A stretch of DNA of 64,000 bases from Escherichia coli. Its GTDB lineage: Bacteria > Pseudomonadota > Gammaproteobacteria > Enterobacterales > Enterobacteriaceae. Location: the NCBI RefSeq assembly GCF_002854065.1, contig NZ_CP024147.1; one strand, written 5' to 3'. Below are positions 8,990 to 57,554 of this stretch, piece after piece (the stretch's first letter is position 1; each line of letters starts with the position of its first letter). The notes below the pieces were generated by a model that worked only from the letters and a program-made list of their open reading frames with translations, was not told the origin of the DNA and searched no databases. Position numbers and translations under genes: made by a program.

Positions 8990-11721
8990 CCCTCCTGTTT
9001 TTTCAACAGCAGGATGCTTAAGCCCATCACCAGCGGTATGGCTATCAGCAACGGGATAAAAAGTTGCCACAAATCAGTCAGATCCAGCGCTTTCGAGAAC
9101 GTCCCGCGGGCGATAGTCAGAAAATGACTGGTCGGGTAAACCTCGCCGATCCAACGTCCCGGCCCTTCCAGCGAAGCTACCGGATCGATCATCCCGGAAA
9201 ACTGTGTCGCCGGGATCAACGTGATAATCGCCGTACCGAAAATGGCGGCAATCTGGCTTTTCATAAAGGTGGAGATCAGCAGCCCCATTCCGGTGGCGAT
9301 GATGATATACAGCAGCGCCGCCAGGGTGAGCGTCAGGAAACTGCCTTTATGCGGTACGCCAAACACAAACACCGACAGGCCGCAGAGCAGGAAAAAGTTC
9401 AGCATCCCCAGCGCGATGTACGGTAGCTGTTTGCCAAGCAAAAATTCGCTACGGGTGGTGGGAGTCACGTAAAGGTTGATAATCGACCCTAGTTCTTTTT
9501 CCCGCACCACGCTAAGGGCGCTTAGCATTGACGGGATCATCATCAGCAGAAGCGGGATCACCGCCGGAACAATCGCTGGCAGGCTTTTTACGTCCGGGTT
9601 ATAGCGATAGCGCGTCTCAATATTCATCAGCACGCTTTGGCTGGCGGGTGTGGATTGTCGGCTTGCCACATCCTGAAGCCAACTCTGGTGCATTGCCTGC
9701 ACGTAACCTTTTACCGTTTCGGCACGACTGGGCATCGCTCCGTCGATCCAGACGCCGAGTTCCACAGGCGTACCACGCGCGATATCACGCCCGAAATTTG
9801 GAGGGATCTCAATTGCCACCGTGATATCGCCCGCACGCATCCGACGATCAAGCTCGTCATAACTGGTAAGCGGCGGCTGTTCGATAAAGTAACGGGAACC
9901 GGAGAGGTTGAGCGTCCACGCCTGGCTACTGACGGTCTGGTCGCGGTCAAGCACCGCAAAGCGCAGGTTTTCCACATCCATACTGATGCCGTAACCCATT
10001 ATCAGCATCAGGATCACCGTTCCCATCAGCGCCAGCGTCGAACGGACCGGATCGCGGCGCAATTCCAGTGCTTCGCGCCGGCTGTAGCTAAACAGACGGC
10101 GCAGGCTAAATCCCTGGCGCGGCGCGTGTGTAGCATCGTGTATCACGGGAGGCGCTTCGGCTTCGTTGCTCTGTCCTGCCGCTTCCTGCAAATAGGCGAT
10201 AAATGCCTCTTCCAGACTGGCGGCTCCGCGTTTCTCAACCAGTTCCTGCGGTGTACCGCTGGCGAGCACTTTTCCGGCGTGCATCAGTGAGATACGGTCG
10301 CAGCGTTCCGCTTCGTTCATAAAGTGGGTGGAGATGAAGATAGTCACTTTGTCCTGGCGCGAGAGATCGACCATCAACTGCCAGAACATATCCCTCGCCA
10401 CCGGATCGACGCCAGAAGTAGGTTCATCGAGGATTAACATTTCCGGGCGATGAATCACCGCCACCGCCAGCGAAAGCCGCTGGCGAATGCCGAGCGGCAA
10501 TGACTCCGGCAGAACATCTTCAACGTCGTTGAGTTTAAAACGCTCGCTCATTTCAGCCACTCGCGCGGGAATTTCCGCTTCCGGGATGTGAAACAAACGG
10601 GCATGTAACTCAAGGTTTTGCCGCACGGTGAGTTCGTTATAGAGCGAAAACGCCTGCGACATATAGCCCACCCGACGGCGGGTATCGATATCTTTTGGAT
10701 CAACCGGTTGCCCAAATAGCCACGCCTCACCTTCGCTGGCGGGCAGCAGTCCGGTAAGCATTTTCATGGTGGTGGATTTACCGCAGCCATTCGAACCAAG
10801 AAAACCAAAAATCTCCCCGCGTGGAATGCGGAAATTAACGTGATCAACGGCAACGAAGGAACCAAAACGCATGGTCAGATCGCGCGCTTCGATGGCAATC
10901 TCTGCGTTTTCAGGTTGATACGGTGGGATCACTACCGCCTGATGCGCCTGGCGTTGTGCTTGCGGTAACAGATTAATAAATGCTTCTTCCAGCGTGGCGC
11001 TTTGCGTTTGCTGCCGCAGCTCTTCGGCGCTGCCAGTTGCCAGCACTTCTCCGGCATTCATCGCTACCAGCCAGTCGAAGCGTTCGGCCTCTTCCATATA
11101 GGCGGTGGCGACCAGCACGCTCATATTGCTCTGCCGCTGGCGAATACTGTCGATCAGATCCCAGAACTGGGCGCGGGAGAGCGGGTCAACCCCCGTTGTT
11201 GGCTCATCAAGAATCAACAGTTCCGGGTCGTGGATTAACGCACAGCACAGCCCCAGTTTTTGCTTCATCCCGCCGGAGAGTTTCCCTGCCGGACGATCGC
11301 GAAACGGTGCTAACCCGGTGCTGGTCAGCAGCTCATTAATTCGGACTTCCCGCTCCGCTTTATCGTGACCGAACAAGCGAGCGAAAAAATCGACATTTTC
11401 ATACACCGATAAGGTGTGGTAGAGATTTTTGCCCAGCCCCTGCGGCATCCAGGCGATGCGCGGGCAGACGTCGCGGCGATGCTTCGGGTCGCGCATATCG
11501 CCGCCCAGCACCATCACATTGCCCTGTTCAATGACGCGGGCACCGGAAATCAACGACAACAAGCTCGACTTCCCGACGCCATCCGGACCAATCAGCCCGA
11601 CCATACAGCGGGCCGGAATATCGAGTGTGATATTGTTCAGCGCAACGGTTTTTCCATAATGCTGGCTCACGCCCGCCAGTTGCGCGACAGGCGGGACGGG
11701 AACCAGTTCCAGATGCGTCAT
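8986..11721 (-). CDS. rbbA: ribosome-associated ATPase RbbA (tandem ABC ATPase domains fused to ABC-2 permease)
   Basis: 911 aa; two Walker A motifs ([18 protein letters not shown]), two signature motifs, C-terminal membrane domain. Confidence 0.9.
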
Positions 11722-28291: not shown

Positions 28292-29647
28292 ATGACTAAA
28301 CACTATGATTACATCGCCATCGGCGGCGGCAGCGGCGGTATCGCCTCCATCAACCGCGCGGCTATGTACGGCCAGAAATGCGCGCTGATTGAAGCCAAAG
28401 AGCTGGGCGGCACCTGCGTGAACGTCGGCTGCGTACCGAAGAAAGTGATGTGGCACGCGGCGCAAATCCGTGAAGCGATCCATATGTACGGCCCGGATTA
28501 TGGTTTTGATACCACTATCAATAAATTCAACTGGGAAACGTTGATCGCCAGCCGTACCGCCTATATCGACCGTATTCATACTTCTTATGAAAACGTGCTC
28601 GGTAAAAATAACGTTGATGTAATCAAAGGCTTTGCCCGCTTCGTTGATGCCAAAACGCTGGAAGTAAACGGCGAAACCATCACGGCCGCTCATATCCTGA
28701 TCGCCACCGGCGGTCGTCCGAGCCACCCGGATATTCCGGGCGTGGAATACGGTATTGATTCTGATGGTTTCTTTGCCCTTCCTGCTTTGCCAGAGCGTGT
28801 GGCGGTTGTTGGCGCGGGTTACATCGCCGTGGAACTGGCAGGCGTGATTAACGGCCTCGGCGCGAAAACGCATCTGTTTGTGCGTAAACATGCGCCGCTG
28901 CGCAGCTTCGACCCGATGATCTCTGAAACGCTGGTCGAAGTGATGAACGCCGAAGGCCCGCAGTTGCACACCAACGCCATCCCGAAAGCGGTAGTGAAAA
29001 ATGCCGATGGTAGCCTGACGCTGGAGCTGGAAGATGGTCGCAGTGAAACGGTGGATTGCCTGATTTGGGCGATTGGTCGCGAGCCTGCCAATGACAACAT
29101 CAACCTCGAAGCCGCTGGCGTTAAAACCAACGAAAAAGGCTATATCGTCGTCGATAAATATCAAAACACCAACATTGAAGGTATTTACGCGGTGGGCGAT
29201 AACACGGGTGCAGTAGAACTGACACCGGTGGCAGTTGCAGCGGGTCGCCGCCTCTCTGAGCGCCTGTTTAATAACAAGCCGGATGAGCATCTGGATTACA
29301 GCAACATTCCGACCGTGGTCTTCAGCCATCCGCCGATTGGTACTGTTGGTTTAACGGAACCGCAGGCGCGCGAGCAGTACGGCGACGATCAGGTGAAAGT
29401 GTATAAATCCTCTTTCACCGCGATGTATACCGCCGTCACCACTCACCGCCAGCCGTGCCGCATGAAGCTGGTGTGCGTTGGACCGGAAGAGAAGATTGTC
29501 GGTATTCACGGCATTGGTTTTGGTATGGACGAAATGTTGCAGGGCTTCGCGGTGGCACTGAAGATGGGGGCGACCAAAAAAGACTTCGACAATACCGTCG
29601 CCATTCACCCGACGGCGGCAGAAGAGTTCGTTACCATGAGAGGTTAG
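28292..29647 (+). CDS. gor: glutathione-disulfide reductase
   Basis: 451 aa; FAD site GGGSGG, redox-active [14 protein letters not shown]-terminal HPTAAEE. Confidence 0.95.
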
Positions 29648-29683
29648 TGTAGAAAAACCATACCTACACCTTTGCAAATCTGG

Positions 29684-29919: not shown

Positions 29920-31164
29920 TTAAATATTTTTTTGTATGGTGTCCGGAGATAAGGATAAACTCTCATGCCTAGATAATGGGCGTTCATCTTCTTGTGTATA
30001 TATAACTTTATAATCTTTTGGTAAGTCTTCAGCCAGGCGACCGGAGAATAAAGTTAGTTCGTCAGTAGCCATCGTAAATAACCAAGCTTCCTGATTTATA
30101 CTCTGGTTAACTCGTAAAATTCTACCCAGTACCTGCCTGAAATAGAGCTCAGTTTTAACAGCGCTTAGATGACAGCAAACCTGAAGTCGAGGGATGTCTG
30201 TACCCTCACTGATCATGCCAACACTGACAATCCACTCGGTAGTCGCATGTCGATAATGGTCAATTTTAGAAATGGCTCTTCTATCGTGATATGTCACAAT
30301 AGTTGTAGTTTGGCCAAACTCGTTTTCTAAAATACTTAGTAGTTCATATGCATGCTCGACTGATGAAGCAACAACCAGACCACCTGCGTCAGGGTTAAAT
30401 TTTCTAATTTCACGAAGTTTTTCACATCCAGATTTGATTACATACCTCATTGCATCAGGATACCAAATTATTGATTGATATGAAGTTACTGTCTCATTCA
30501 AAAAGTCTGCTATAGAACTATAATTTTTCATTGTTTCATCGGATGAGATAGCCAAATTGCTACTATTTACAAGGACAATTTTTGGCTTACGACAAACGTT
30601 ATCTGCAATAGCTTCTCTGAGACCGTATTCATAGTCACAGCTAACCACTCCATCCGAATCAGTGTAATTTGAAAACACTATTGGTGTATTGTCTGTTCGC
30701 CATGGAGTTCCTGTTAATGCCAATGTGTAACTGACACATTGTTGAACTTGAGACAGTATTTCCCCGCCCCAGACATTTGCATTTTCCAATGAATCACCAG
30801 AGCAATGATGTATTTCGTCGAAAACAGCCAACACACGATGACGCTTCAAAGAATCCCAGAAACGTTTATCGAAATACATCAGACTATGATAAGTATACAC
30901 CGCGCCAACCGCACCAAAGTCTCCATCAAAACTTCTTTCCAGAATACGGGAAAAATTACTTTTTATAGATGAGACTACCGCTGTTGAGGGGGCAAAGCAT
31001 ATAACCAGATCAACCATATCGAGCTCAAGCATTCTTTTGGTGACTTCGGCCGCCATTACAGTTTTTCCAGCACCAGGACTTGCAAGACATAGAAAGTGCT
31101 GTAATCCAGATTGATACTTTGTTAGCGCAGCGGCAACGCATTCTTTCTGCCAATCTCTCAACAT
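29920..31164 (-). CDS. compact SF2 (DEAD/DEAH-type) helicase, function unknown
   Basis: 414 aa, low GC; motif I SPGAGKT, motif II FDEIHH, motif III LTGTP, motif VI QVLGRILR; no extra nuclease domain. Confidence 0.7.
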   Translation of the reverse strand: MLRDWQKECVAAALTKYQSGLQHFLCLASPGAGKTVMAAEVTKRMLELDMVDLVICFAPSTAVVSSIKSNFSRILERSFDGDFGAVGAVYTYHSLMYFDKRFWDSLKRHRVLAVFDEIHHCSGDSLENANVWGGEILSQVQQCVSYTLALTGTPWRTDNTPIVFSNYTDSDGVVSCDYEYGLREAIADNVCRKPKIVLVNSSNLAISSDETMKNYSSIADFLNETVTSYQSIIWYPDAMRYVIKSGCEKLREIRKFNPDAGGLVVASSVEHAYELLSILENEFGQTTTIVTYHDRRAISKIDHYRHATTEWIVSVGMISEGTDIPRLQVCCHLSAVKTELYFRQVLGRILRVNQSINQEAWLFTMATDELTLFSGRLAEDLPKDYKVIYTQEDERPLSRHESLSLSPDTIQKNI

Positions 31165-31280
31165 ACTCGATGCTCATCACTATGTTGACTAGACTGGCCC
31201 CCTGAATCTCCAGACAACCAATATCACTTAAATAAGTGATAGTCTTAATACTAGTTTTTAGACTAGTCATTGGAGAACAG

Positions 31281-31646
31281 ATGATTGATGTCTTAGGGCC
31301 GGAGAAACGCAGACGGCGTACCACACAGGAAAAGATCGCAATTGTTCAGCAGAGCTTTGAACCGGGGATGACGGTCTCCCTCGTTGCCCGGCAACATGGT
31401 GTAGCAGCCAGCCAGTTATTTCTCTGGCGTAAGCAATACCAGGAAGGAAGTCTTACTGCTGTCGCCGCCGGAGAACAGGTTGTTCCTGCCTCTGAACTTG
31501 CTGCCGCCATGAAGCAGATTAAAGAACTCCAGCGCCTGCTCGGCAAGAAAACGATGGAAAATGAACTCCTCAAAGAAGCCGTTGAATATGGACGGGCAAA
31601 AAAGTGGATAGCGCACGCGCCCTTATTGCCCGGGGATGGGGAGTAA
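31281..31646 (+). CDS. insC: IS2 transposase OrfA (InsC)
   Basis: Product [30 protein letters not shown]... HTH protein. Confidence 0.85.
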
Positions 31647-32509
31647 GCTTAGTCAGCCGTTGTCTCCGGGTGTCGCGTGCGCAGTTGCACGTCATTCTCA
31701 GACGAACCGATGACTGGATGGATGGCCGCCGCAGTCGTCACACTGATGATACGGATGTGCTTCTCCGTATACACCATGTTATCGGAGAGCTGCCCACGTA
31801 TGGTTATCGTCGGGTATGGGCGCTGCTTCGCAGACAGGCAGAACTTGATGGTATGCCTGCGATCAATGCCAAACGTGTTTACCGGATCATGCGCCAGAAT
31901 GCGCTGTTGCTTGAGCGAAAACCTGCTGTACCGCCATCGAAACGGGCACATACAGGCAGAGTGGCCGTGAAAGAAAGCAATCAGCGATGGTGCTCTGACG
32001 GGTTCGAGTTCTGCTGTGATAACGGAGAGAGACTGCGTGTCACGTTCGCGCTGGACTGCTGTGATCGTGAGGCACTGCACTGGGCGGTCACTACCGGCGG
32101 CTTCAACAGTGAAACAGTACAGGACGTCATGCTGGGAGCGGTGGAACGCCGCTTCGGCAACGATCTTCCGTCGTCTCCAGTGGAGTGGCTGACGGATAAT
32201 GGTTCATGCTACCGGGCTAATGAAACACGCCAGTTCGCCCGGATGTTGGGACTTGAACCGAAGAACACGGCGGTGCGGAGTCCGGAGAGTAACGGAATAG
32301 CAGAGAGCTTCGTGAAAACGATAAAGCGTGACTACATCAGTATCATGCCCAAACCAGACGGGTTAACGGCAGCAAAGAACCTTGCAGAGGCGTTCGAGCA
32401 TTATAACGAATGGCATCCGCATAGTGCGCTGGGTTATCGCTCGCCACGGGAATATCTGCGGCAGCGGGCTTGTAATGGGTTAAGTGATAACAGATGTCTG
32501 GAAATATAG
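31604..32509 (+). CDS. insD: IS2 transposase OrfB (InsD), DDE integrase-like
   Basis: 301-aa ORF in the frame overlapping insC 3-prime end, as expected for IS3-family frameshift expression. Confidence 0.85.
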
Positions 32510-33063
32510 GGGCAAATCCATTGACCAAGTACTTTTGTTAAAGCGGTAACTCTGCCAAGCAATTCTGCCGACTGATTTTTTGCCTGCTGATAAAGGTCCA
32601 TAAAACATATCTTCTTGGCTGGAAAACGTTCCATCAAAGATTGATATTCTTCTAGCTCGCCCAGAATCACAGCAAGTTTGGCTTCATGAATAACTTTTTC
32701 TTTTTCTATATCGACCAAGAAACGATCAGCCCCCGGTGCCGACGGTTTCATTTTTTCGGGCATAGCGATAAGCCGCGAATTCTTTGGCAACGCTCTTGGT
32801 ATGAAAATAGTTGAATGAAAACTTTCCGTTTTCTTATACACACTTCTGGACTTGCCACCACTACTCTCAATTTTATAGATGAAGCCCAGGGACTCTAACC
32901 GAAGAAGTTGTCGGTGAATGAATTTTCTAGCCTCAGTAACTTCTGCGTAGTCATCTGTAATCTTCAGCAAAGCATCCCTGAGATGGATAGCGCAGAACTC
33001 ATTAAAACCCATCTCAATCAATAACTTATACATATATGGATGCAACTTTACTGCAGATTTCAT
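32434..33063 (-). CDS. hypothetical protein with putative winged-helix region; native C-terminus displaced by IS2 (last 27 codons are IS2-encoded)
   Basis: ORF reads into IS2 at 32520; removing IS2 and one TTGAC copy restores ...VLGQHSDEHRVC-stop, ending 4 nt downstream of the helicase ATG. Confidence 0.55.
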
Positions 33064-33161
33064 TATAAAAAATCCAAAATAACAAACTTAGAATTGCTAA
33101 GTATACAGAAACCAACGAAACTTAGACAATCTCAGCACCCTAAGGCAATGATGATGAATAC

Positions 33162-33473
33162 GTGGCTCACCCAAACCCGATACCCGAGAGGCTCAAAGCG
33201 GCCAGAACAAAAGCTGGGATCACTCAGAAGGAATTGGGGATCCGAATTGGCATGGAACCCAGCTCGGCGAGTGGTCGTATGAACCATTATGAGAAAGGGA
33301 GACACACTCCTGACATTGATACCCTCAAGCGTATGGCTGATGAACTTGGGGTACCAATTAACTATTTCTTTTGCGAGAACGACATAACTGCAGAATTAGC
33401 ATGTCTGATAGCTAAAATGACTGAGCAGCAGCAGATTGAATTGATTGCTATGCTAAAGAAAAATCAATCTTAG
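33162..33473 (+). CDS. XRE-family helix-turn-helix transcriptional regulator
   Basis: 103 aa; HTH LKAARTKAGITQKELGIRIGMEPSSASGRMNHYEKG typical of Cro/C1-type regulators. Confidence 0.7.
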   Translation: MAHPNPIPERLKAARTKAGITQKELGIRIGMEPSSASGRMNHYEKGRHTPDIDTLKRMADELGVPINYFFCENDITAELACLIAKMTEQQQIELIAMLKKNQS

Positions 33474-48954: not shown

Positions 48955-49412
48955 AGCATTACAACAAGGGTCTTCTGCCTCAAGATCGAAGACCCTTCAG
49001 TTTCACTAGCAGATTGCCAGTTCTAGTAGCCAATTAAGAGAGGAGTGGATTGTTCTTTGGGTATTCGCAAACCCAGCAACGGTAAAATCAGGACTGACCC
49101 AAAAATTCAACGAGAATCCACCCCTTTAAATCTTTGATCCCTTCCCGGAAGCAGTATACGGCATATCTGAGTTAATCGTTTCTATTGGAGCTTCAGGGAA
49201 GCGACTCTTAATAGAAATCTGTTAATACTGTCCAAAACTGATTCCCTTTATCCCGAGCTGAACCGTAACAAAACCATCTCTCTTTGAGATCTCACATACT
49301 CAACGAACATAAGCCATTGCTGCTACATACAATTTTACGAAGCATATCACCTTAGTTGATCATGAAATCCATCCTGAATACAGATTGATTTTTATACTAT
49401 ATTAAGTGAGAT

Positions 49413-50756
49413 ATGATCTTCTTTAGAGTTGAGCTAAAAGGAGTCGAGGCGATGGCCAGGATAATCCAATCAGCCGGTATCAATCATGGTGCAACAGCAA
49501 AAATAATTTCCGATTCAATAGATTATAACTCCGGCATACATATTGCAGGATTACCAACGCTATATAATAAAGATGGTCATTTTGTAGAAATTGTAAATTT
49601 GTGGTTTTTGGATTTGATAACCGTTAAGAGGCTAGAGGATATTAGTTCTTCAGCCAGAGCAATTCTTCGTTACTGGTCTTTTCTAGAACGAGAAGAGCTT
49701 ACATGGAGTCATTTTCCTCCAGTGAAACGCCTGAAACCCACATACCTTTTCCGTAGCAACGACTTGTTAAAAGCAGTTAAAGAGGGAAGACTGGCGTACT
49801 CAACTGCAAATACTTATATGGGACATTTAGTTCAGTTTTACATCTGGGCAATTGAAAATCATCATCTTGTCATATCAAGTGAAAAAGAAGCTCCCTTTAC
49901 TATTGAGTTTGTTAAGCGTAACAATAGAGGCCTGCTGGCACATCTTCGCCCAATGATCAGTGTGCAAACGAGCGATTTACGTATCCGCGTTCCTAAAGTT
50001 ACAAACGCCGAGATCCAGTCATTAACTCCTTTAACTCAAGATCATCTTTCCTTACTATCATTCAACTTAAGCCATCAATCTGTTGAATTTATGTTGATGA
50101 CTTTACTGGCCTGTAAAAGTGGTTTGAGACTTCGTGAAGCATGTAGCCTCACAATTGAGGCTTTATCTCAAGCTTTGCCCGCCAACGAATTAAAGCTACG
50201 CTATATGATCAACATTTGGCCCCACAATGGTGTTGATACAAAATTTAGAAAAAAAAGAAATATTGAAGTCCCCTGGCCTCTACTAAACGCATTACAACGC
50301 TACTCGCTGTCAGAAAGAAGGCAAAAAAGACTTTCAAAATTACAGACAAAAATAGCCATTCCCTCAATTTCGGAAAAGATTAAAGAATCCCACAATAAAG
50401 CATCTCGATTCGAACCTCTTTTTATCAGTCAGCAAGGAAATTGTATCCAGCCCGAAGTTCTAAATGCAAGGTGGGTTGCATTTAGAAATGAACTTGCCAA
50501 AAAAGAACCTAGTTTTCGTTATCGTTTCCACGACCTCCGATGTACCTATGCCACATACAGACTTCAAGACCTGCTGGATAGCAATCTCTCAGAAGGGGAT
50601 GCCCTAGACTGTCTTATGGGATGGATGGGACACAATAACGAAAGAACCACATTTAAATATATCCGCTACTTGAAGAAAAACGAGATGCTCAAGTGTGCTT
50701 TTTCGCTATTAGACTCAGTGATGGATAATGCAATAAGGGATAATTTAAATGACTGA
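49413..50756 (+). CDS. tyrosine site-specific recombinase (first of trio)
   Basis: R...HxxR...H...Y signature: LRLREACSL, FHDLRCTYATY, GHNNERTTFKYIRY. Confidence 0.8.
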   Translation: MIFFRVELKGVEAMARIIQSAGINHGATAKIISDSIDYNSGIHIAGLPTLYNKDGHFVEIVNLWFLDLITVKRLEDISSSARAILRYWSFLEREELTWSHFPPVKRLKPTYLFRSNDLLKAVKEGRLAYSTANTYMGHLVQFYIWAIENHHLVISSEKEAPFTIEFVKRNNRGLLAHLRPMISVQTSDLRIRVPKVTNAEIQSLTPLTQDHLSLLSFNLSHQSVEFMLMTLLACKSGLRLREACSLTIEALSQALPANELKLRYMINIWPHNGVDTKFRKKRNIEVPWPLLNALQRYSLSERRQKRLSKLQTKIAIPSISEKIKESHNKASRFEPLFISQQGNCIQPEVLNARWVAFRNELAKKEPSFRYRFHDLRCTYATYRLQDLLDSNLSEGDALDCLMGWMGHNNERTTFKYIRYLKKNEMLKCAFSLLDSVMDNAIRDNLND

Positions 50757-52472
50757 TAAAATCCCTCAATCCAGACTCGGCCATGAAATACTACTGGAGG
50801 TTACAGATGGTGGAAATCGTTCTAAAACACTAGATTTCAATCGCTACAACTATTTATACTTCCCCACTCGAAATAAAATAAATAGAGGTCACAGTACATT
50901 TCAAGATAGATCAGTCAGCGCTGAATCGTTATATGTAGCATTCAGAGATTCAGACTACTCATCAGCCACAAAATATTATCTTTTTGAATACCTCAGGCAA
51001 TATATTGTATTTTGCGACAAGTGTCACCATCCCATTTTCACTAATGAATCCGTGCAGGCCTACTGTGATCTCCTTATTTATAAAAATAAATCAGGAATTA
51101 TTTTGAATAGTACTTATACTGCTATCATTAGTGCCACAAAACGCTTATTCGTTATGCTTGACTTACCTGGGCGGTGGTTTGATGAATTACCAACCTTAGG
51201 AAAGTCACAGGCACAGCCCTATAAGGCCTATAGTGACAATGATTTAAAAAAACTACTCCCTTTACTGAGGATATTTTTCAAGCAAATTTCCAATAAGTTC
51301 CTACAAGACCCCGCTTTGTATCTTTCTCAAGGTAAGAATGAAACTGATATGTTTTTCAGGTGGAATGGTAAAATATATGCAGTATATGGTAGTGTCGGGC
51401 AACTAATGGCTTCTGCTGTATATCTACTGTCTTACTATACATGGGCAAACACAAATACATTACTTTCTCTTGAAAGACCAGACATATGTGAAAGTAATGT
51501 AAATGGAGAATGGTACCAAATGCCAGCATTTAAGCGCCGGGCATTTAGAGTCATCACTATTCAGATCGGTGCCCACGACCAGATCAACATTCCAAAGTAT
51601 TCAATGGAATTTTTCAACCAACTTCTAAAAGTCTCAAAAGCTATTTCAGTTGAAAGTAACTTACTTTTTCAGTCCGGTTCATGTAATCGCATCACCCCAT
51701 TATCAGCGGTCCACTTACAAAATTTCAACAGTTTTCTCAAAAAGAACTTTAGATTAACTGATGATAAAGGACTTAGCTATCACCTGTAATATCGAGATTT
51801 CGTGCTACTGGTAGTCAATTTACGCAATTGCATTACTCTCATACACATAGTGCATCGCTATTAGGAAATTCACCGAAAACAACTCGCAAGCATTATTCAG
51901 AAGGGAATGAATACCAAAATCAGTCAATGCTCCAGGACTCTGTCTCTGTTTTTGCAGACAAGGCGGTAAATGGCGGGAATATAGAGACGTCTAAAAAAAG
52001 AATAAAAAGTGAACTTAATGTTGAGATTTTAACATATGAAAGTATGCTTAAAATGAAATCTCCACCAATGCGACAGGCCCACGGCAGTTACTGTAAAGAT
52101 CCATTCGGGGAGCAGGCTAAAAAGTTCTTGCTACGCGCCCAACGTCACGATTTGCTTTCTACAGAAAAATTTGCTTGCTCAGATCTACTGATGTGTTTTT
52201 CCTGTCCTCATCAAGTTGTGATAGCTGAACCTACTGATATTTGGTGTTTGCTGAGTTTTAAAGAATGCATAGAAGAGAGTATTTACAAGCATGTCAATCA
52301 CACTCATTTCCATAATAACTATGACTCTGTGTTGTCGGCAATTGAAAAAATTTTAATGAGTATTGATAAAAAAATACTTTCAAGTGCAACTCAAAAATTT
52401 CTCGATGAGGGTCCTCACCCTTTATGGAGAGACCAGTCATTTCTATATCCATATAGCAATAAGGATACATGA
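50749..52472 (+). pseudogene. tyrosine recombinase (second of trio) interrupted by a frameshift within the catalytic region
   Basis: ORF 50749-51789 ends ...DDKGLSYHL-stop; the overlapping frame continues ...LSPVISRFRATGSQFTQLHYSHTHSASLLGNSPKTTRKHY, carrying the box II and Tyr motifs; frames overlap only in 51777-51789. Confidence 0.6.
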
Positions 52473-54271
52473 TGAAAAAAGATACATTAAAAATTTATTT
52501 ACCCGATAGTGTAAATGAGAATCAGTGTCCTGAGGCTTGTGATGTAATATTTCTTCATAGAAGGCAATGCTGGGGGGAGTTAAATGACATTCCTATTTGC
52601 ATTGATAATAAGGGGAATGTAGTCGCCAGGTTTGGCGATATCATATGGAATTTGGAGCCTCTGGTCGTAACTAAAAATGCAACACATAGGCAAATTAATT
52701 TCTCAGTACTAAAGTCCCATCCATCTCTCTTATATGAGATGAAACTCATTTGCTACGGTTGGCTGTTCACAAAGAACATGCAATACAGTTTACCGACTAA
52801 AATATCAACAATCATCGGAAGAGCATCGGGTCTGAAGATGAGTTATAAATATCTGATGTCAAATTCCCTGGATAGTATTTCTCGTATATGCGAACCTGAA
52901 ATATGGGGGAAATATCTGAACTTTCTTGAAGAACAAAAAAAGAGCGCAGGGACTTTAGTTCATATACTGTGTTCCCTTCAGCAAGCCTATCTACTATTTC
53001 CATGGATGGGACTTGATTACCGAGAAATTAAATTCAGCCCTACGAATTTAAGTAAAAAAATATGTCGAGATGAAGCAATTGAGAGAGCACAAACCCTGGC
53101 TATACCGGAAGATATCGCAGATAAATTATTACACTTTGCAGTAAACCTCGTAGATACCGCATGGCAATACAGGGAGCAACTGGGTGAAACAGAACGACGC
53201 ATTCAGGAAAACTATAAGTTAGGAGAACAGGCGGTTCAAAACAAAATAATATCGGGCCAATGGAAGTGGCTAACGACTGAAGAAGGTACCCCTGCTTTTA
53301 GACACCATTTTGCCAAAGAAGCGGCCCGCTTCTTCCCCTTTAACCCAGCTGAAATCATATCTGAACTTCTCACTGACTACCCTGATCGCCCGACAGATGC
53401 TAATGGTTCCTGGTGGCATTTACAGCGAGGCAATCTTACATCAGCCTGTTTTGTTTGCTGTGCTGCATTCTCAGGTATGCGGGAAAGTGAACTTTATGAG
53501 CTAACATCTGAGAGTTATTACAATGCTGTTTACAGCGGCAGAACCTTTCATTTTCTAAAAGGCAAGACTCATAAAATGGGGGAAAGGCATACTGAGTGGG
53601 TTGTTGCCCCTATCGTTCAAAAAGCAGTCGAAGTTATGAGTGCCTTAACGAAACACTTAAGAGAGTATTTGCTACAAGATGCTTCAACTGCACGGGATAA
53701 AGAACTCGCGCAATGCCTTTGGCTTTCCCAGGGGCAGCGCTCAACTCAACCCAAAAGAATATCATGCTGGGCCCTACGCCTCACAAATTTCTCCAAATAC
53801 TCTGGTGCAATCGTTTCTGAAAAAGATTACGCAGAATGCCTTCGTTCCAACCCGAATAGTCAGGAAAAGATTAAAAATCATGTTCACATTGGAAAACACT
53901 GGGCGCTTTCCCCTCATCAGTTCAGAAGGACTCTTGCCTTTTTTACAATAAAAAATAGATTGGGAAATGCGATAGCCATCAAACAGCAATTCAAGCACCT
54001 CTATCTCCAGATGTCTGAGTGGTATTGCGAAGGTGGTATCCCTTCGCGCCTGGATGAAGTCGAGGCCGACAAAGAATTGCAGAAAATGATAGATACAGTA
54101 AGCAATGAGCAAATTACCCAAAAATACTGGTCATGGTTTCATGGTACCGAAACACTTTCAGGGAGTCATGGCAAAGATATTCTGAAGCTCAGGGATGATT
54201 TGCCAATCATGTTTAGAAGTTGGGAGAAATTATACAAATTGGTGAAAGATAAAAGGATCACGCTACACTGA
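52469..54271 (+). CDS. tyrosine site-specific recombinase (third of trio)
   Basis: 600 aa; FSGMRESELYEL, SPHQFRRTLAFF (HxxR), C-terminal KHLYLQMSEWY; 4-nt overlap with preceding gene. Confidence 0.75.
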   Translation: MMKKDTLKIYLPDSVNENQCPEACDVIFLHRRQCWGELNDIPICIDNKGNVVARFGDIIWNLEPLVVTKNATHRQINFSVLKSHPSLLYEMKLICYGWLFTKNMQYSLPTKISTIIGRASGLKMSYKYLMSNSLDSISRICEPEIWGKYLNFLEEQKKSAGTLVHILCSLQQAYLLFPWMGLDYREIKFSPTNLSKKICRDEAIERAQTLAIPEDIADKLLHFAVNLVDTAWQYREQLGETERRIQENYKLGEQAVQNKIISGQWKWLTTEEGTPAFRHHFAKEAARFFPFNPAEIISELLTDYPDRPTDANGSWWHLQRGNLTSACFVCCAAFSGMRESELYELTSESYYNAVYSGRTFHFLKGKTHKMGERHTEWVVAPIVQKAVEVMSALTKHLREYLLQDASTARDKELAQCLWLSQGQRSTQPKRISCWALRLTNFSKYSGAIVSEKDYAECLRSNPNSQEKIKNHVHIGKHWALSPHQFRRTLAFFTIKNRLGNAIAIKQQFKHLYLQMSEWYCEGGIPSRLDEVEADKELQKMIDTVSNEQITQKYWSWFHGTETLSGSHGKDILKLRDDLPIMFRSWEKLYKLVKDKRITLH

Positions 54272-54310
54272 ACTCTGCATAGTTATTGTAAGAACGGATA
54301 TGATTGTGAG

Positions 54311-54565
54311 ATGGAAGGGGTCATTAACCCAGCATTTTGTATAGATTGTAGTACAAATGGTAGTATTATTGATGGCGAACAAGCTGCCTGGTGGAAAAGC
54401 AAACATAATGCACTGATCTTATATTTGAGTGAAAACGCAGAGATATCTACTGCTGTTTATATTCACTGCCTAACACAAATTCATGCAGCTGAGAAGGTAA
54501 TGTCTGATTTTTCAATAGAATACATTCCATTTCAGCCCGAAATAGAGATCAGAACAGATGAGTAA
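54311..54565 (+). CDS. small hypothetical protein downstream of recombinase trio
   Basis: 84-aa ORF, 8-nt overlap with next ORF. Confidence 0.4.
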   Translation: MEGVINPAFCIDCSTNGSIIDGEQAAWWKSKHNALILYLSENAEISTAVYIHCLTQIHAAEKVMSDFSIEYIPFQPEIEIRTDE

Positions 54566-55013
54566 AAAAGACAACACACTGCTACTGCTTGAGGCAGCTC
54601 TGGACCGTATTTTACGCGGTGAATCACAGAAAATAGCACCATCCCGAAAACTCAGTGTTCGGGCGGTTGAGGTAGAATCAGGACTCGGTAATGGTAGTGC
54701 ATATTACCACACTAAAATTATCGAAAAAATCAAACAAATAAAAAACTCTTCCATAACGACAGGAAGTTTAAATCATCAACATCGAAAATGGAAACAAAAA
54801 GCACTTAAGGCTGAAAAATTAAAAAACAAATTCCGGGATGAAAACATTGCATTAAAATTATTAAATTCACAAATTGCCGCAGATCAGTATAGACAAATGA
54901 GCACTTTAAGAGATGCCTTACAACGTATATTGGAACTCGAAAAAACAATTGAAGAATTGAACATTGAACTGGTTGAGACCAGACGTAAAAACATTACTCT
55001 ATTTAAGCAATAA
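54558..55013 (+). CDS. small coiled-coil hypothetical protein, possible recombination accessory factor
   Basis: 151-aa ORF, basic and coiled-coil rich, translationally coupled to the preceding ORF. Confidence 0.45.
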   Translation: MSKKDNTLLLLEAALDRILRGESQKIAPSRKLSVRAVEVESGLGNGSAYYHTKIIEKIKQIKNSSITTGSLNHQHRKWKQKALKAEKLKNKFRDENIALKLLNSQIAADQYRQMSTLRDALQRILELEKTIEELNIELVETRRKNITLFKQ

Positions 55014-55738
55014 CTCAGTTATAACACAATACGATTTACAATAGATAGTTTCGCGATGATAAGCATTACTGCGTACCGTGAATATCCTACGTTATACAGG
55101 GTTACGGGTAAAAACTATCGGGTCTGCGGTGAGACATGTCATTTTCATCGGTACATCCCCCGTTAAAGGGGAAATTATCTTTCCGGTCTTCATTTTCTTA
55201 ATAAAGTCCAATTTTTGCTCAGTGTCATCCTGGTATCTCTTTCATTTCTGATTATCCCACACAGAGGATTCAGCCAGAAAAGTACATTTTTCAGTTTCTA
55301 TCCCCTCACTCCGGCTCCTCCCCTTTCAACACTGATTTCGGGAAAACAAGCATGCGCCTAAAAAACAATCAAAACAGTCCGTATAAGTTACTTAGGTTGT
55401 CTGCTACTACAATCCCCTACCTTCTCAGTCAGTTGTTTATGGACTGACAGGAAGTAAAAAAGCCTATTAAAAAGAGCAAAAATAAGCAGCTAAACAAACA
55501 GGAAGCCTCTCAATCAAATGATAGTATTCCGAAATCAGCAGTTCAGCATGTAATAGGTACACGAGGGAGTTATGGTCTCTAATGAGTCGAGTTCACCAAG
55601 CACAAGAAGGATGGAAATTGCCGGACACCAAACTCTGGAAAAGTCCCATCCTGCCCAGAAGCCTTCCCCCACAAGGCTTTCCAGTTTTTCTACAGTTAAA
55701 TCGTGTATGGGTACTGCGTGACCATGCGTTAAATGTTA

Positions 55739-56334: not shown

Positions 56335-56391
56335 CCGCTTTGGTTTGTAACGCTGGTGGCGCTGGCGCTACGTCTCTCTTTCACTTTGTAA
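56335..56391 (+). pseudogene. arsB: arsB 3-prime remnant (last about 17 codons)
   Basis: ...PLWFVTLVALALRLSFTL-stop closely matches the C-terminus of the intact island ArsB; no upstream arsB sequence present. Confidence 0.6.
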
Positions 56392-56403
56392 TGAGATAAT
56401 GAT

Positions 56404-56772
56404 ATGAGCAACATTACCATTTATCACAACCCGGCCTGCGGCACGTCGCGTAATACGCTGGAGATGATCCGCAACAGCGGCACAGAACCGACCATTATCC
56501 ATTATCTGGAAACTCCGCCAACGCGCGATGAACTGGTCAAACTCATTGCCGATATGGGGATTTCCGTACGCGCGCTGCTGCGTAAAAACGTCGAGCCGTA
56601 TGAGGAACTGGGTCTTGCAGAAGATAAATTTACTGACGATCGGTTAATTGATTTTATGCTGCAACATCCTATCCTGATTAACCGTCCGATTGTGGTGACG
56701 CCGCTGGGAACTCGCCTATGCCGCCCCTCGGAAGTGGTGCTGGAAATTCTGCCAGATGCGCAAAAAGGCGCG
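56404..56772 (+). pseudogene. arsC: arsC truncated at about codon 123 by IS1
   Basis: MSNITIYHNPACGTSRN... reads into the IS1 terminal repeat at 56773; differs from the island arsC at several residues. Confidence 0.8.
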
Positions 56773-56787
56773 GGTAATGACTCCAAC

Positions 56788-57291
56788 TTATTGATAGTGT
56801 TTTATGTTCAGATAATGCCCGATGACTTTGTCATGCAGCTCCACCGATTTTGAGAACGACAGCGACTTCCGTCCCAGCCGTGCCAGGTGCTGCCTCAGAT
56901 TCAGGTTATGCCGCTCAATTCGCTGCGTATATCGCTTGCTGATTACGTGCAGCTTTCCCTTCAGGCGGGATTCATACAGCGGCCAGCCATCCGTCATCCA
57001 TATCACCACGTCAAAGGGTGACAGCAGGCTCATAAGACGCCCCAGCGTCGCCATAGTGCGTTCACCGAATACGTGCGCAACAACCGTCTTCCGGAGCCTG
57101 TCATACGCGTAAAACAGCCAGCGCTGGCGCGATTTAGCCCCGACGTATCCCCACTGTTCGTCCATTTCCGCGCAGACGATGACGTCACTGCCCGGCTGTA
57201 TGCGCGAGGTTACCGACTGCGGCCTGAGTTTTTTAAATGGCGGAAAATCGTGTTGAGGCCAACGCCCATAATGCGGGCGGTTGCCCGGCAT
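56788..57291 (-). CDS. insB: IS1 InsB
   Basis: 167-aa ORF inside IS1. Confidence 0.85.
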
Positions 57292-57485
57292 CCAACGCCA
57301 TTCATGGCCATATCAATGATTTTCTGGTGCGTACCGGGTTGAGAAGCGGTGTAAGTGAACTGCAGTTGCCATGTTTTACGGCAGTGAGAGCAGAGATAGC
57401 GCTGATGTCCGGCAGTGCTTTTGCCGTTACGCACCACCCCGTCAGTAGCTGAACAGGAGGGACAGCTGATAGAAACAGAAGCCAC
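57210..57485 (-). CDS. insA: IS1 InsA
   Basis: 91-aa zinc-finger/[28 protein letters not shown]. Confidence 0.85.
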
Positions 57486-57554
57486 TGGAGCACCTCAAAA
57501 ACACCATCATACACTAAATCAGTAAGTTGGCAGCATCACCTTACCAGGGATACG

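Follow-up and report, generated by a model that had tools for sequence, protein, structure and literature searches.

The window analysed here, a 64-kb stretch of Escherichia coli contig NZ_CP024147.1, aligns to K-12 up to position 29638 and again from 55717, and in between it carries a genomic island with a helicase gene, a VspR-like gene, an HTH gene, an IS2, two ars clusters and a module of four genes. These four are named intA, tfp, intB and srap, after the core genes intA-tfp-intB-srap of the integrative elements that circularize with a strand bias (SEs; Idola et al. 2023, PMC10214605). The features of the locus are as follows.

29629 to 29638, no strand: left junction core (CGTTACCATG), within the 3' end of gor, attL side
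29639 to 55716, no strand: genomic island, about 26 kb long, lying between gor and dinQ and absent from K-12
29644 to 29658, no strand: left copy of an imperfect terminal inverted repeat (TTAGTGTAGAAAAAC), conserved in Buttiauxella
49413 to 50756, plus strand: intA, seemingly intact, encoding an ordinary 447-aa tyrosine recombinase
50749 to 51789, plus strand: 5' fragment of tfp, 346 aa, ending in GLSYHL-stop
51777 to 52472, plus strand: 3' fragment of tfp in the -1 frame, beginning LSPVISRFRATGSQF, with its stop at 52472
51778, plus strand: site of the 1-nt deletion in tfp, a single T versus TT in intact copies
52469 to 54271, plus strand: intB, a large tyrosine recombinase, cut to 600 aa
54269 to 54271, plus strand: premature TGA in intB, GGA in intact copies (Gly600, nearly invariant)
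54272 to 54565, plus strand: orphaned in-frame C-terminal tail of intB, appearing as an 84-aa ORF at 54311 to 54565
54558 to 55013, plus strand: srap, seemingly intact, encoding a small accessory protein (151 aa) whose C-terminus is a coiled coil
55684 to 55698, no strand: right copy of the terminal inverted repeat (GTTTTTCTACAGTTA), imperfect
55717 to 55726, no strand: right junction core (CGTGACCATG), attR side, followed by the displaced original gor 3' end (ending ATGCGTTAA)

The ends of the island are marked by a 10-bp core, CGT(T/G)ACCATG, that is found at both junctions inside the last gor codons. The empty site in K-12 (positions 3637-3646 of L007) aligns with both 29629-29638 and 55717-55726, and the island supplies gor with a new 3' end, in which TMRG-stop replaces TMR-stop. 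Salmonella (L008) carries this island too and shares its right junction, and Buttiauxella (L005) shares its left one. When 55684-55698 is reverse-complemented, 13 of its 15 positions agree with 29644-29658, which is of moderate significance only, the chance expectation being estimated at roughly 0.03-0.1 for the regions compared; the two copies of this repeat lie 5 and 18 nt from the two cores. Within these limits 19.8 kb separate the left end from the start of intA, and 0.7 kb the end of srap from the right end, while the helicase, VspR-like and HTH genes form a module at the far end. Relatives keep this far-end module with quite different cargo between the conserved arms, the variable cargo lying upstream of intA and sometimes downstream of srap too. 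A separate short element of 6.7 kb, reaching from upstream of intA to the right junction, was also considered. It was rejected since positions 48955-49415 contain neither an att core nor an inverted repeat, and also because relatives keep the far-end module with variable cargo in between. A link to VSP-1 of Vibrio cholerae, which had been prompted only by the Pfam name of the VspR-like gene, was dropped as well. A megablast search of the module against plasmids gave no match.

The gene in the middle of the trio had been predicted to be split by a frameshift, with one reading frame ending at 51789 and a second one opening at 51777. Both frames are present as described, including their 13-nt overlap (51777-51789), and a TAG at 51774-51776 closes the second frame immediately upstream. 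When one T is inserted after 51777, translation yields a continuous protein of 574 aa, which matches full-length single proteins in a protein search (E = 0). On both sides of the junction, this joined product is 100% identical to Salmonella proteins P0001 and P0166, and 87% identical to Buttiauxella P0002. Judged by these alignments, the two ORFs are halves of one gene, far beyond what chance would give. The 5' fragment comprises codons 1-344 of the 574, followed by two out-of-frame codons and the stop, and codes for the core-binding domain plus the first half of the recombinase-like domain, with N234, K262 and R264. The 3' fragment holds the box II-like SRFRAT (R352), LLGN (N374), Y383 and a C-terminal Cys cluster. 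As such, the frameshift at codon 344/345 parts N234, K262 and R264 from R352, Y383 and the Cys cluster, and the tfp frame now stops six codons ahead of the invariant SRFRAT motif. The original prediction was right in assigning the box II and Tyr motifs to the second frame, R352 and Y383 being invariant in about 50 relatives. That the joined product of roughly 570 aa would be similar in size to the third gene is, however, coincidental, as the third gene is itself cut from 697 to 600 aa.

The lost base can be located by comparison with intact copies, in which the codons read AGC TTA TCA CCT GTA (S-L-S-P-V), against AGC TAT CAC CTG TAA in the window. In the alignment the window has AGC-TATCACC where strain 100416 (L002) and the Salmonella enterica contigs L003, L004 and L008 have AGCTTATCACC. 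Strain 100416 reads GGACTTAGCTTATCACC against GGACTTAGC-TATCACC in the window, and the missing T is the sole difference across the 2,043 window bases that align to this strain there. The three Salmonella contigs, of which L008 is the longer, have TT at the site and are 99.8% identical to the window. The deletion falls inside the codon for Leu344, a residue that is invariant in a family alignment of 47 sequences. Since the deletion is also the only difference in tfp between the window and the intact Salmonella allele, the event must be recent.

Whether this split is peculiar to one lineage can be judged from how intact and split alleles are distributed. The search covered 5,426 complete E. coli genomes, of which two contain this DNA: strain CUWW06 (L001), which matches the window at 99.95% identity and shows the split too, and strain 100416. 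In nine further copies drawn from different samples the module is 99.95-100% identical to that of the window, and the deletion is present in all nine. In the wider assemblies (NCBI, JGI, ENA, Logan) the split products are found in E. coli and Shigella dysenteriae, as a 346-aa protein on 123 contigs and a 181-aa protein on 130 contigs, the former being indexed in 244 sample blocks; intact Tfp is recorded on 891 contigs. Relatives of the repaired Tfp retrieved by protein search are almost all single ORFs of 565-590 aa, and the full-length relatives from a profile search of the whole library measure about 565-630 aa, alongside a group of 750-830 aa. In the diverged orthologues examined, tfp is always a single ORF (573-581 aa), and neither the protein nor the profile searches found a split tfp among them. 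Representative copies are listed below, with protein lengths in the order IntA, Tfp, IntB and Srap.

Salmonella (L008): 99.8% identical DNA; 447, 574, 697 and 151 aa; same ars cargo, fully intact
E. coli (L012-L016), same gor site: 89.5% identical DNA; 434-447, 574, 697-698 and 154 aa
Buttiauxella (L005), same gor site: 85.9% identical DNA; 440, 574, 697 and 153 aa
E. coli (L009-L011), different site: Tfp 56% identical; 442, 573, 697 and 152 aa
V. alginolyticus plasmid: Tfp 35% identical; 440, 581, 684 and 152 aa

The comparison with orthologous trios that the original prediction had called for thus gives one continuous tfp ORF and never two conserved genes. Because all copies that differ by more than about 0.2% are continuous, the recurring split boundary reflects inheritance in one lineage and not a two-gene design. 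On the alignments, the loss of the T is a lineage-specific event that arose in an ancestor of an E. coli/Shigella lineage and was inherited from there.

The split gene is tfp, whose product is the module's tyrosine-recombinase-fold protein. The tblastn matches of the repaired protein in plasmids NC_019394.1, NZ_CP014052.1 and NZ_CP023312.1 are the very CDSs listed as Tfp (PMC10214605, Additional file 3). Sequence methods fail to recognise Tfp, which is therefore placed among the recombinases by fold comparison: Pfam gave a weak SAM-like N-terminal match only, a profile search of PDB sequences with Tfp gave chance asparaginase matches only, and an hhalign comparison of Tfp with IntB was not significant. 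The best local alignment in the latter (E = 0.1) sets RFRAT on QFRRT and HYSEGN on WYCEGG. In an alignment of the window protein with 49 relatives, 18-36% identical to it, R264, R352, Y383, G446, C449, C477, C483 and S503 are invariant, and N234, K262, G386 and C486 nearly so. Going by spacing, motif resemblance and predicted secondary structure, N234 in (Y/F)TGxN would take the place of the box I Arg in the canonical TGxR, K262 and R264 of a KxR on a beta-hairpin that of the canonical beta-hairpin Lys, and R352 in (R/K)(F/L)RxT that of HxxR; N374, which is a His in 9 of the 50 sequences, would stand at the canonical His/Trp, and Y383 at the nucleophilic Tyr. The distances from R352 to N374 and from N374 to Y383 are 22 and 9 residues, the IntB equivalents being 24 and 9. 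The corresponding spacings in XerD also match those of Tfp. If mapped in this manner, Tfp would lack the box I Arg and both His but retain the Lys, the second Arg and the Tyr, in agreement with the published statement that the Tfp family lacks the full RHRY catalytic set (PMC10214605). The original prediction had spoken of a recombinase broken in its catalytic region, which holds for the fold; a catalytic chemistry is unproven for a family without this full set of residues.

In the other genes of the module, the motifs are more readily identified. IntA has weak PF00589 and XerC matches and the pattern HDLR...GH...Y, and the truncated IntB keeps R337, K368, H482, R485, H509 and Y518, all invariant in its family, so that by motif reading both would carry an RHRY set. 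Full-length Srap shares 38% identity with WP_089110671.1, a Srap in the list of Idola et al. (PMC10214605). The nonsense mutation in intB is a second lesion of the module, absent from the original prediction. GGA is found at 54269-54271 in strain 100416 and in the longer Salmonella contig, intact IntB of 697 aa occurs on 465 contigs, and 42 of 44 IntB homologues retrieved measure 681-707 aa, the other two being shorter and probably partial. The tail cut off by the TGA carries the invariant H603, C606, C612, C623 and C626. As the RHRY-type residues are all kept, it is from this conservation that we infer an effect of losing the C-terminal 97 aa. Split tfp and the intB TGA occur together in 7 of 7 copies in which both sites are visible, and the near-identical copies with intact tfp (99.9%) have GGA in intB (2 of 2).

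So what other than a loss of function could the split represent? If it were an error of sequencing or assembly, the true genome would have TT and a continuous ORF, and some indel noise in the window is indeed possible, since its homopolymer lengths differ from those of close relatives at 29926, 47292 and 56198/56205. The missing base, however, sits in a dinucleotide and not in a long run, and the same deletion recurs in the complete genome of CUWW06 and in the nine further copies from NCBI, JGI, ENA and Logan, with split proteins on more than 120 contigs. Furthermore, it is always accompanied by the TGA in intB, which as a substitution is not an indel-type error. An error of this kind, the second option of the original prediction, is therefore exceedingly improbable. 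Its third option, that programmed -1 ribosomal frameshifting (or transcriptional slippage) would yield a full-length protein from the split gene, has in its favour that the required shift is -1 and the overlap short. Yet the sole permissive stretch, 51777-51789 (C TAT CAC CTG TAA), contains no X XXY YYZ heptamer; the nearest one, A AAT TTC at 51720, is followed by five stop codons in the target frame, and there is no homopolymer of six or more bases within 51600-51900. Genes with programmed -1 frameshifting have the heptamer in the overlap and a two-frame layout in their orthologues, and neither is found here, as intact alleles with identical flanks, like all orthologues, encode Tfp in a single frame. 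We give recoding next to no credence.

A further explanation is that both fragments are made and cooperate as a split protein, leaving the element functional. According to the predicted secondary structure, the break does fall at the border of two structural sub-regions, with the beta-sheet and helices ahead of it and the box II-like helix behind it, and both ORFs are called by the annotation pipeline. The first start codons of the second frame, TTG at 51828 and ATG at 51927, nevertheless both lack a Shine-Dalgarno sequence and lie past the invariant R352, the ATG past Y383 too, which makes it unlikely that independent translation of the second half would give a useful product. No diverged tfp orthologue is split, intB is broken in the same copies, and CUWW06 has an extra G373V in the second fragment, which suggests relaxed constraint, albeit as a single case. 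A working split protein is thus very doubtful. An inactivating mutation, the first option of the original prediction, is what the near-identical intact copies and the single-ORF orthologues support, and the tfp frameshift is an ordinary, recent and lineage-specific pseudogenisation in a recently described class of mobile elements.

With tfp broken by loss of a T in the Leu344 codon and intB by a nonsense mutation, it is highly probable that this copy of the SE-type module in the gor arsenic island should be unable to move alone. An ancestor of the E. coli/Shigella lineage lost one T of the TT in codon 344, splitting tfp, and in the same lineage a GGA-to-TGA change removed the invariant His/Cys C-terminal module of IntB. 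The copy would then neither circularize nor integrate on its own, and its arsenic cargo would be fixed while the mobility genes decay. In SEs, knockouts of intA, intB or srap abolish attL x attR recombination, and a tfp deletion was unobtainable, so that a requirement for tfp itself in SEs is putative (PMC10214605). All four genes of the analogous GInt operon were reported as essential (Bardaji et al. 2017, PMC5385486). Because the published knockouts make at least one of tfp and intB necessary for movement, this copy has, by analogy, very probably lost the ability to move, and would be a decaying and probably immobile element. The window covers 64 kb of the genome, and a related element outside it could conceivably provide Tfp and IntB in trans.

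Several other lesions fit a general decay of the island. An IS2 with a 5-bp duplication occupies 31190-32520. The helicase gene is cut from 462 to 414 aa by a T-run at 29926 that is one base short, though in a homopolymer this may be an artefact of assembly. Strain 100416 has an IS3-family element in place of all that lies left of window position 50233, most of intA included, and its tfp is interrupted at window 52268-52275 by an IS1 that has an 8-bp duplication. The ars cargo ORFs are still open in the window. In this E. coli/Shigella lineage, the gor arsenic-resistance island is very probably no longer a mobile element but a remnant fixed in place, and the nearly identical Salmonella copy with its four intact genes is the form that could still move. 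This state of mobility bears on how the spread of the island's cargo is to be judged. Furthermore, natural tfp-null and intB-truncated alleles with an isogenic intact reference are usable for testing the poorly understood role of Tfp. Tfp may not be a passive component, since K262, R264, R352 and Y383 are invariant or nearly so at 18-36% identity and keep a canonical spacing to the Tyr. It is conceivable, though rather improbable, that Tfp acts as a third active-site subunit or as a controller of IntA and IntB, and that its loss would be tolerated only once the nicking enzymes are disabled. Both natural tfp-null lineages do have a disabled catalytic partner (an intB nonsense mutation in one, deletion of intA in 100416), and the fact that tfp of Vibrio alfacsensis could not be deleted in published work fits this pattern of tfp loss only in disabled elements.

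How does the module compare with known systems? Tn554 (tnpA, tnpB, tnpC) is a Firmicutes element without a counterpart of tfp, and is set apart by its description. RIT (recombinase-in-trio) elements resemble the module in having three adjacent genes of the tyrosine-recombinase family; they encode three ordinary-sized recombinases and are not known to have a srap-like fourth gene. A closer likeness is to GInts, which have three recombinase-fold genes and a small fourth, all four reported as essential, and are likewise cargo-carrying islands with site-specific integration and imperfect direct repeats (Bardaji et al. 2017, PMC5385486). However, in the GInt order ginABCD the protein without catalytic residues is the third (GinC), whereas here the second protein is the deficient one and the third has the RHRY-type invariants. 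Moreover, it is the Tfp and Srap families that the window proteins match, two families distinct from GinC and GinD according to Idola et al. (PMC10214605).

With SEs, the module shares the same four collinear core genes in size and order (intA 447, tfp 574, intB 697 when intact, and srap 151 aa), and each of the four has full-length homology to the block in V. alginolyticus NZ_CP014052.1, with identities of 45% for IntA, 35% for Tfp, 37% for IntB and 38% for Srap. In that block, tfp (WP_089110669.1) and srap (WP_089110671.1) are those of Idola et al. (PMC10214605, Additional file 3). Likewise shared are a middle protein with a recombinase fold and without the full RHRY set, a gammaproteobacterial host, site-specific integration with a short core, and the lack of conjugation genes. 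The terminal inverted repeats of SEs are imperfect and 13-19 bp long (motifs C and C'), and the 37 SEs with defined ends in that study include no E. coli or gor-inserted member (PMC10214605). The island differs from SEs in its layout: the published elements have the operon at their left, intA-proximal end and their cargo downstream of srap, whereas here most of the cargo, about 20 kb, lies upstream of intA, and in this sub-family the far end is marked by the conserved helicase, VspR-like and HTH module. A further difference is that tfp and intB are inactivated in this copy. Known here from its genes, the module is of the SE type.

According to the literature, the RHRY tetrad is absent from the Tfp family (PMC10214605). 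In our alignment of the Tfp encoded in the window with its relatives (50 sequences, 18-36% identity to the window protein), R264, R352 and Y383 are invariant, K262 and N234 are nearly so, and the conserved residues keep the canonical spacing to the tyrosine. About 12 relatives of 750-830 aa have only the C-terminal half in common, starting at the box II-like motif. In E. coli CUWW06, the second half of the already split tfp carries a further G-to-T change (position 10466 of that copy, window 51865), resulting in G373V within the conserved LLGN motif. This is consistent with relaxed selection, albeit as a single case.

The third gene of the operon, intB, carries a lesion of its own: a nonsense mutation, TGA at window 54269-54271 versus GGA in intact copies, shortens its product from 697 to 600 aa and leaves a tail downstream:

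54311-54565, orphaned intB tail, an 84-aa ORF downstream of the TGA that bears the invariant His/Cys cluster

In intA, codon 269 (window 50217) reads TGG (Trp) in both the window and CUWW06, versus GGG (Gly) in the Salmonella copies.

At the gor junction (window 29629-29647), insertion of the island replaced the last codons of the gene, such that the protein ends in ..EEFVTMRG* versus ..EEFVTMR*, and the identical replacement of the gor 3' end is seen in Buttiauxella. At window 56343-57540, native arsR and arsB, which in K-12 lie between agrB and arsC, are missing, and the 3' end of the native chromosomal arsC is cut by IS1. The island has an arsRDABC cluster of its own, in which arsC shares 87% identity with native arsC, and a second cluster consisting of arsA, arsD, arsH, arsR and arsP. 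Directly upstream of the arsH start codon, a T-run at window 47292 is one base shorter in the window only, the extra T being present in CUWW06 and in two of the Salmonella copies (L003 and L004).

The end of the island opposite the recombinase operon holds the following features:

29920-33473, module of a helicase (ResIII), a VspR-like gene and an HTH gene
31190-32520, IS2, with a 5-bp target duplication

IS2 interrupts the VspR-like gene within its last codons, directly upstream of the helicase start. Within the helicase gene, the T-run at 29926-29932 counts seven T's versus eight in strain 100416, reducing the ORF from 462 to 414 aa; since this is a homopolymer, the shorter run could reflect either a genuine frameshift or an artefact of the assembly. 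The module itself is conserved across the window, Buttiauxella and the E. coli copies at both the same and a different site (L009-L016), while the cargo between it and the recombinase operon varies by host, comprising AIPR, NADAR/PRTase-CE/DUF6530, MC6/CTD10, or ars genes. This placement of cargo upstream of intA is unlike the layout of the published SEs, the class of elements with the same operon.
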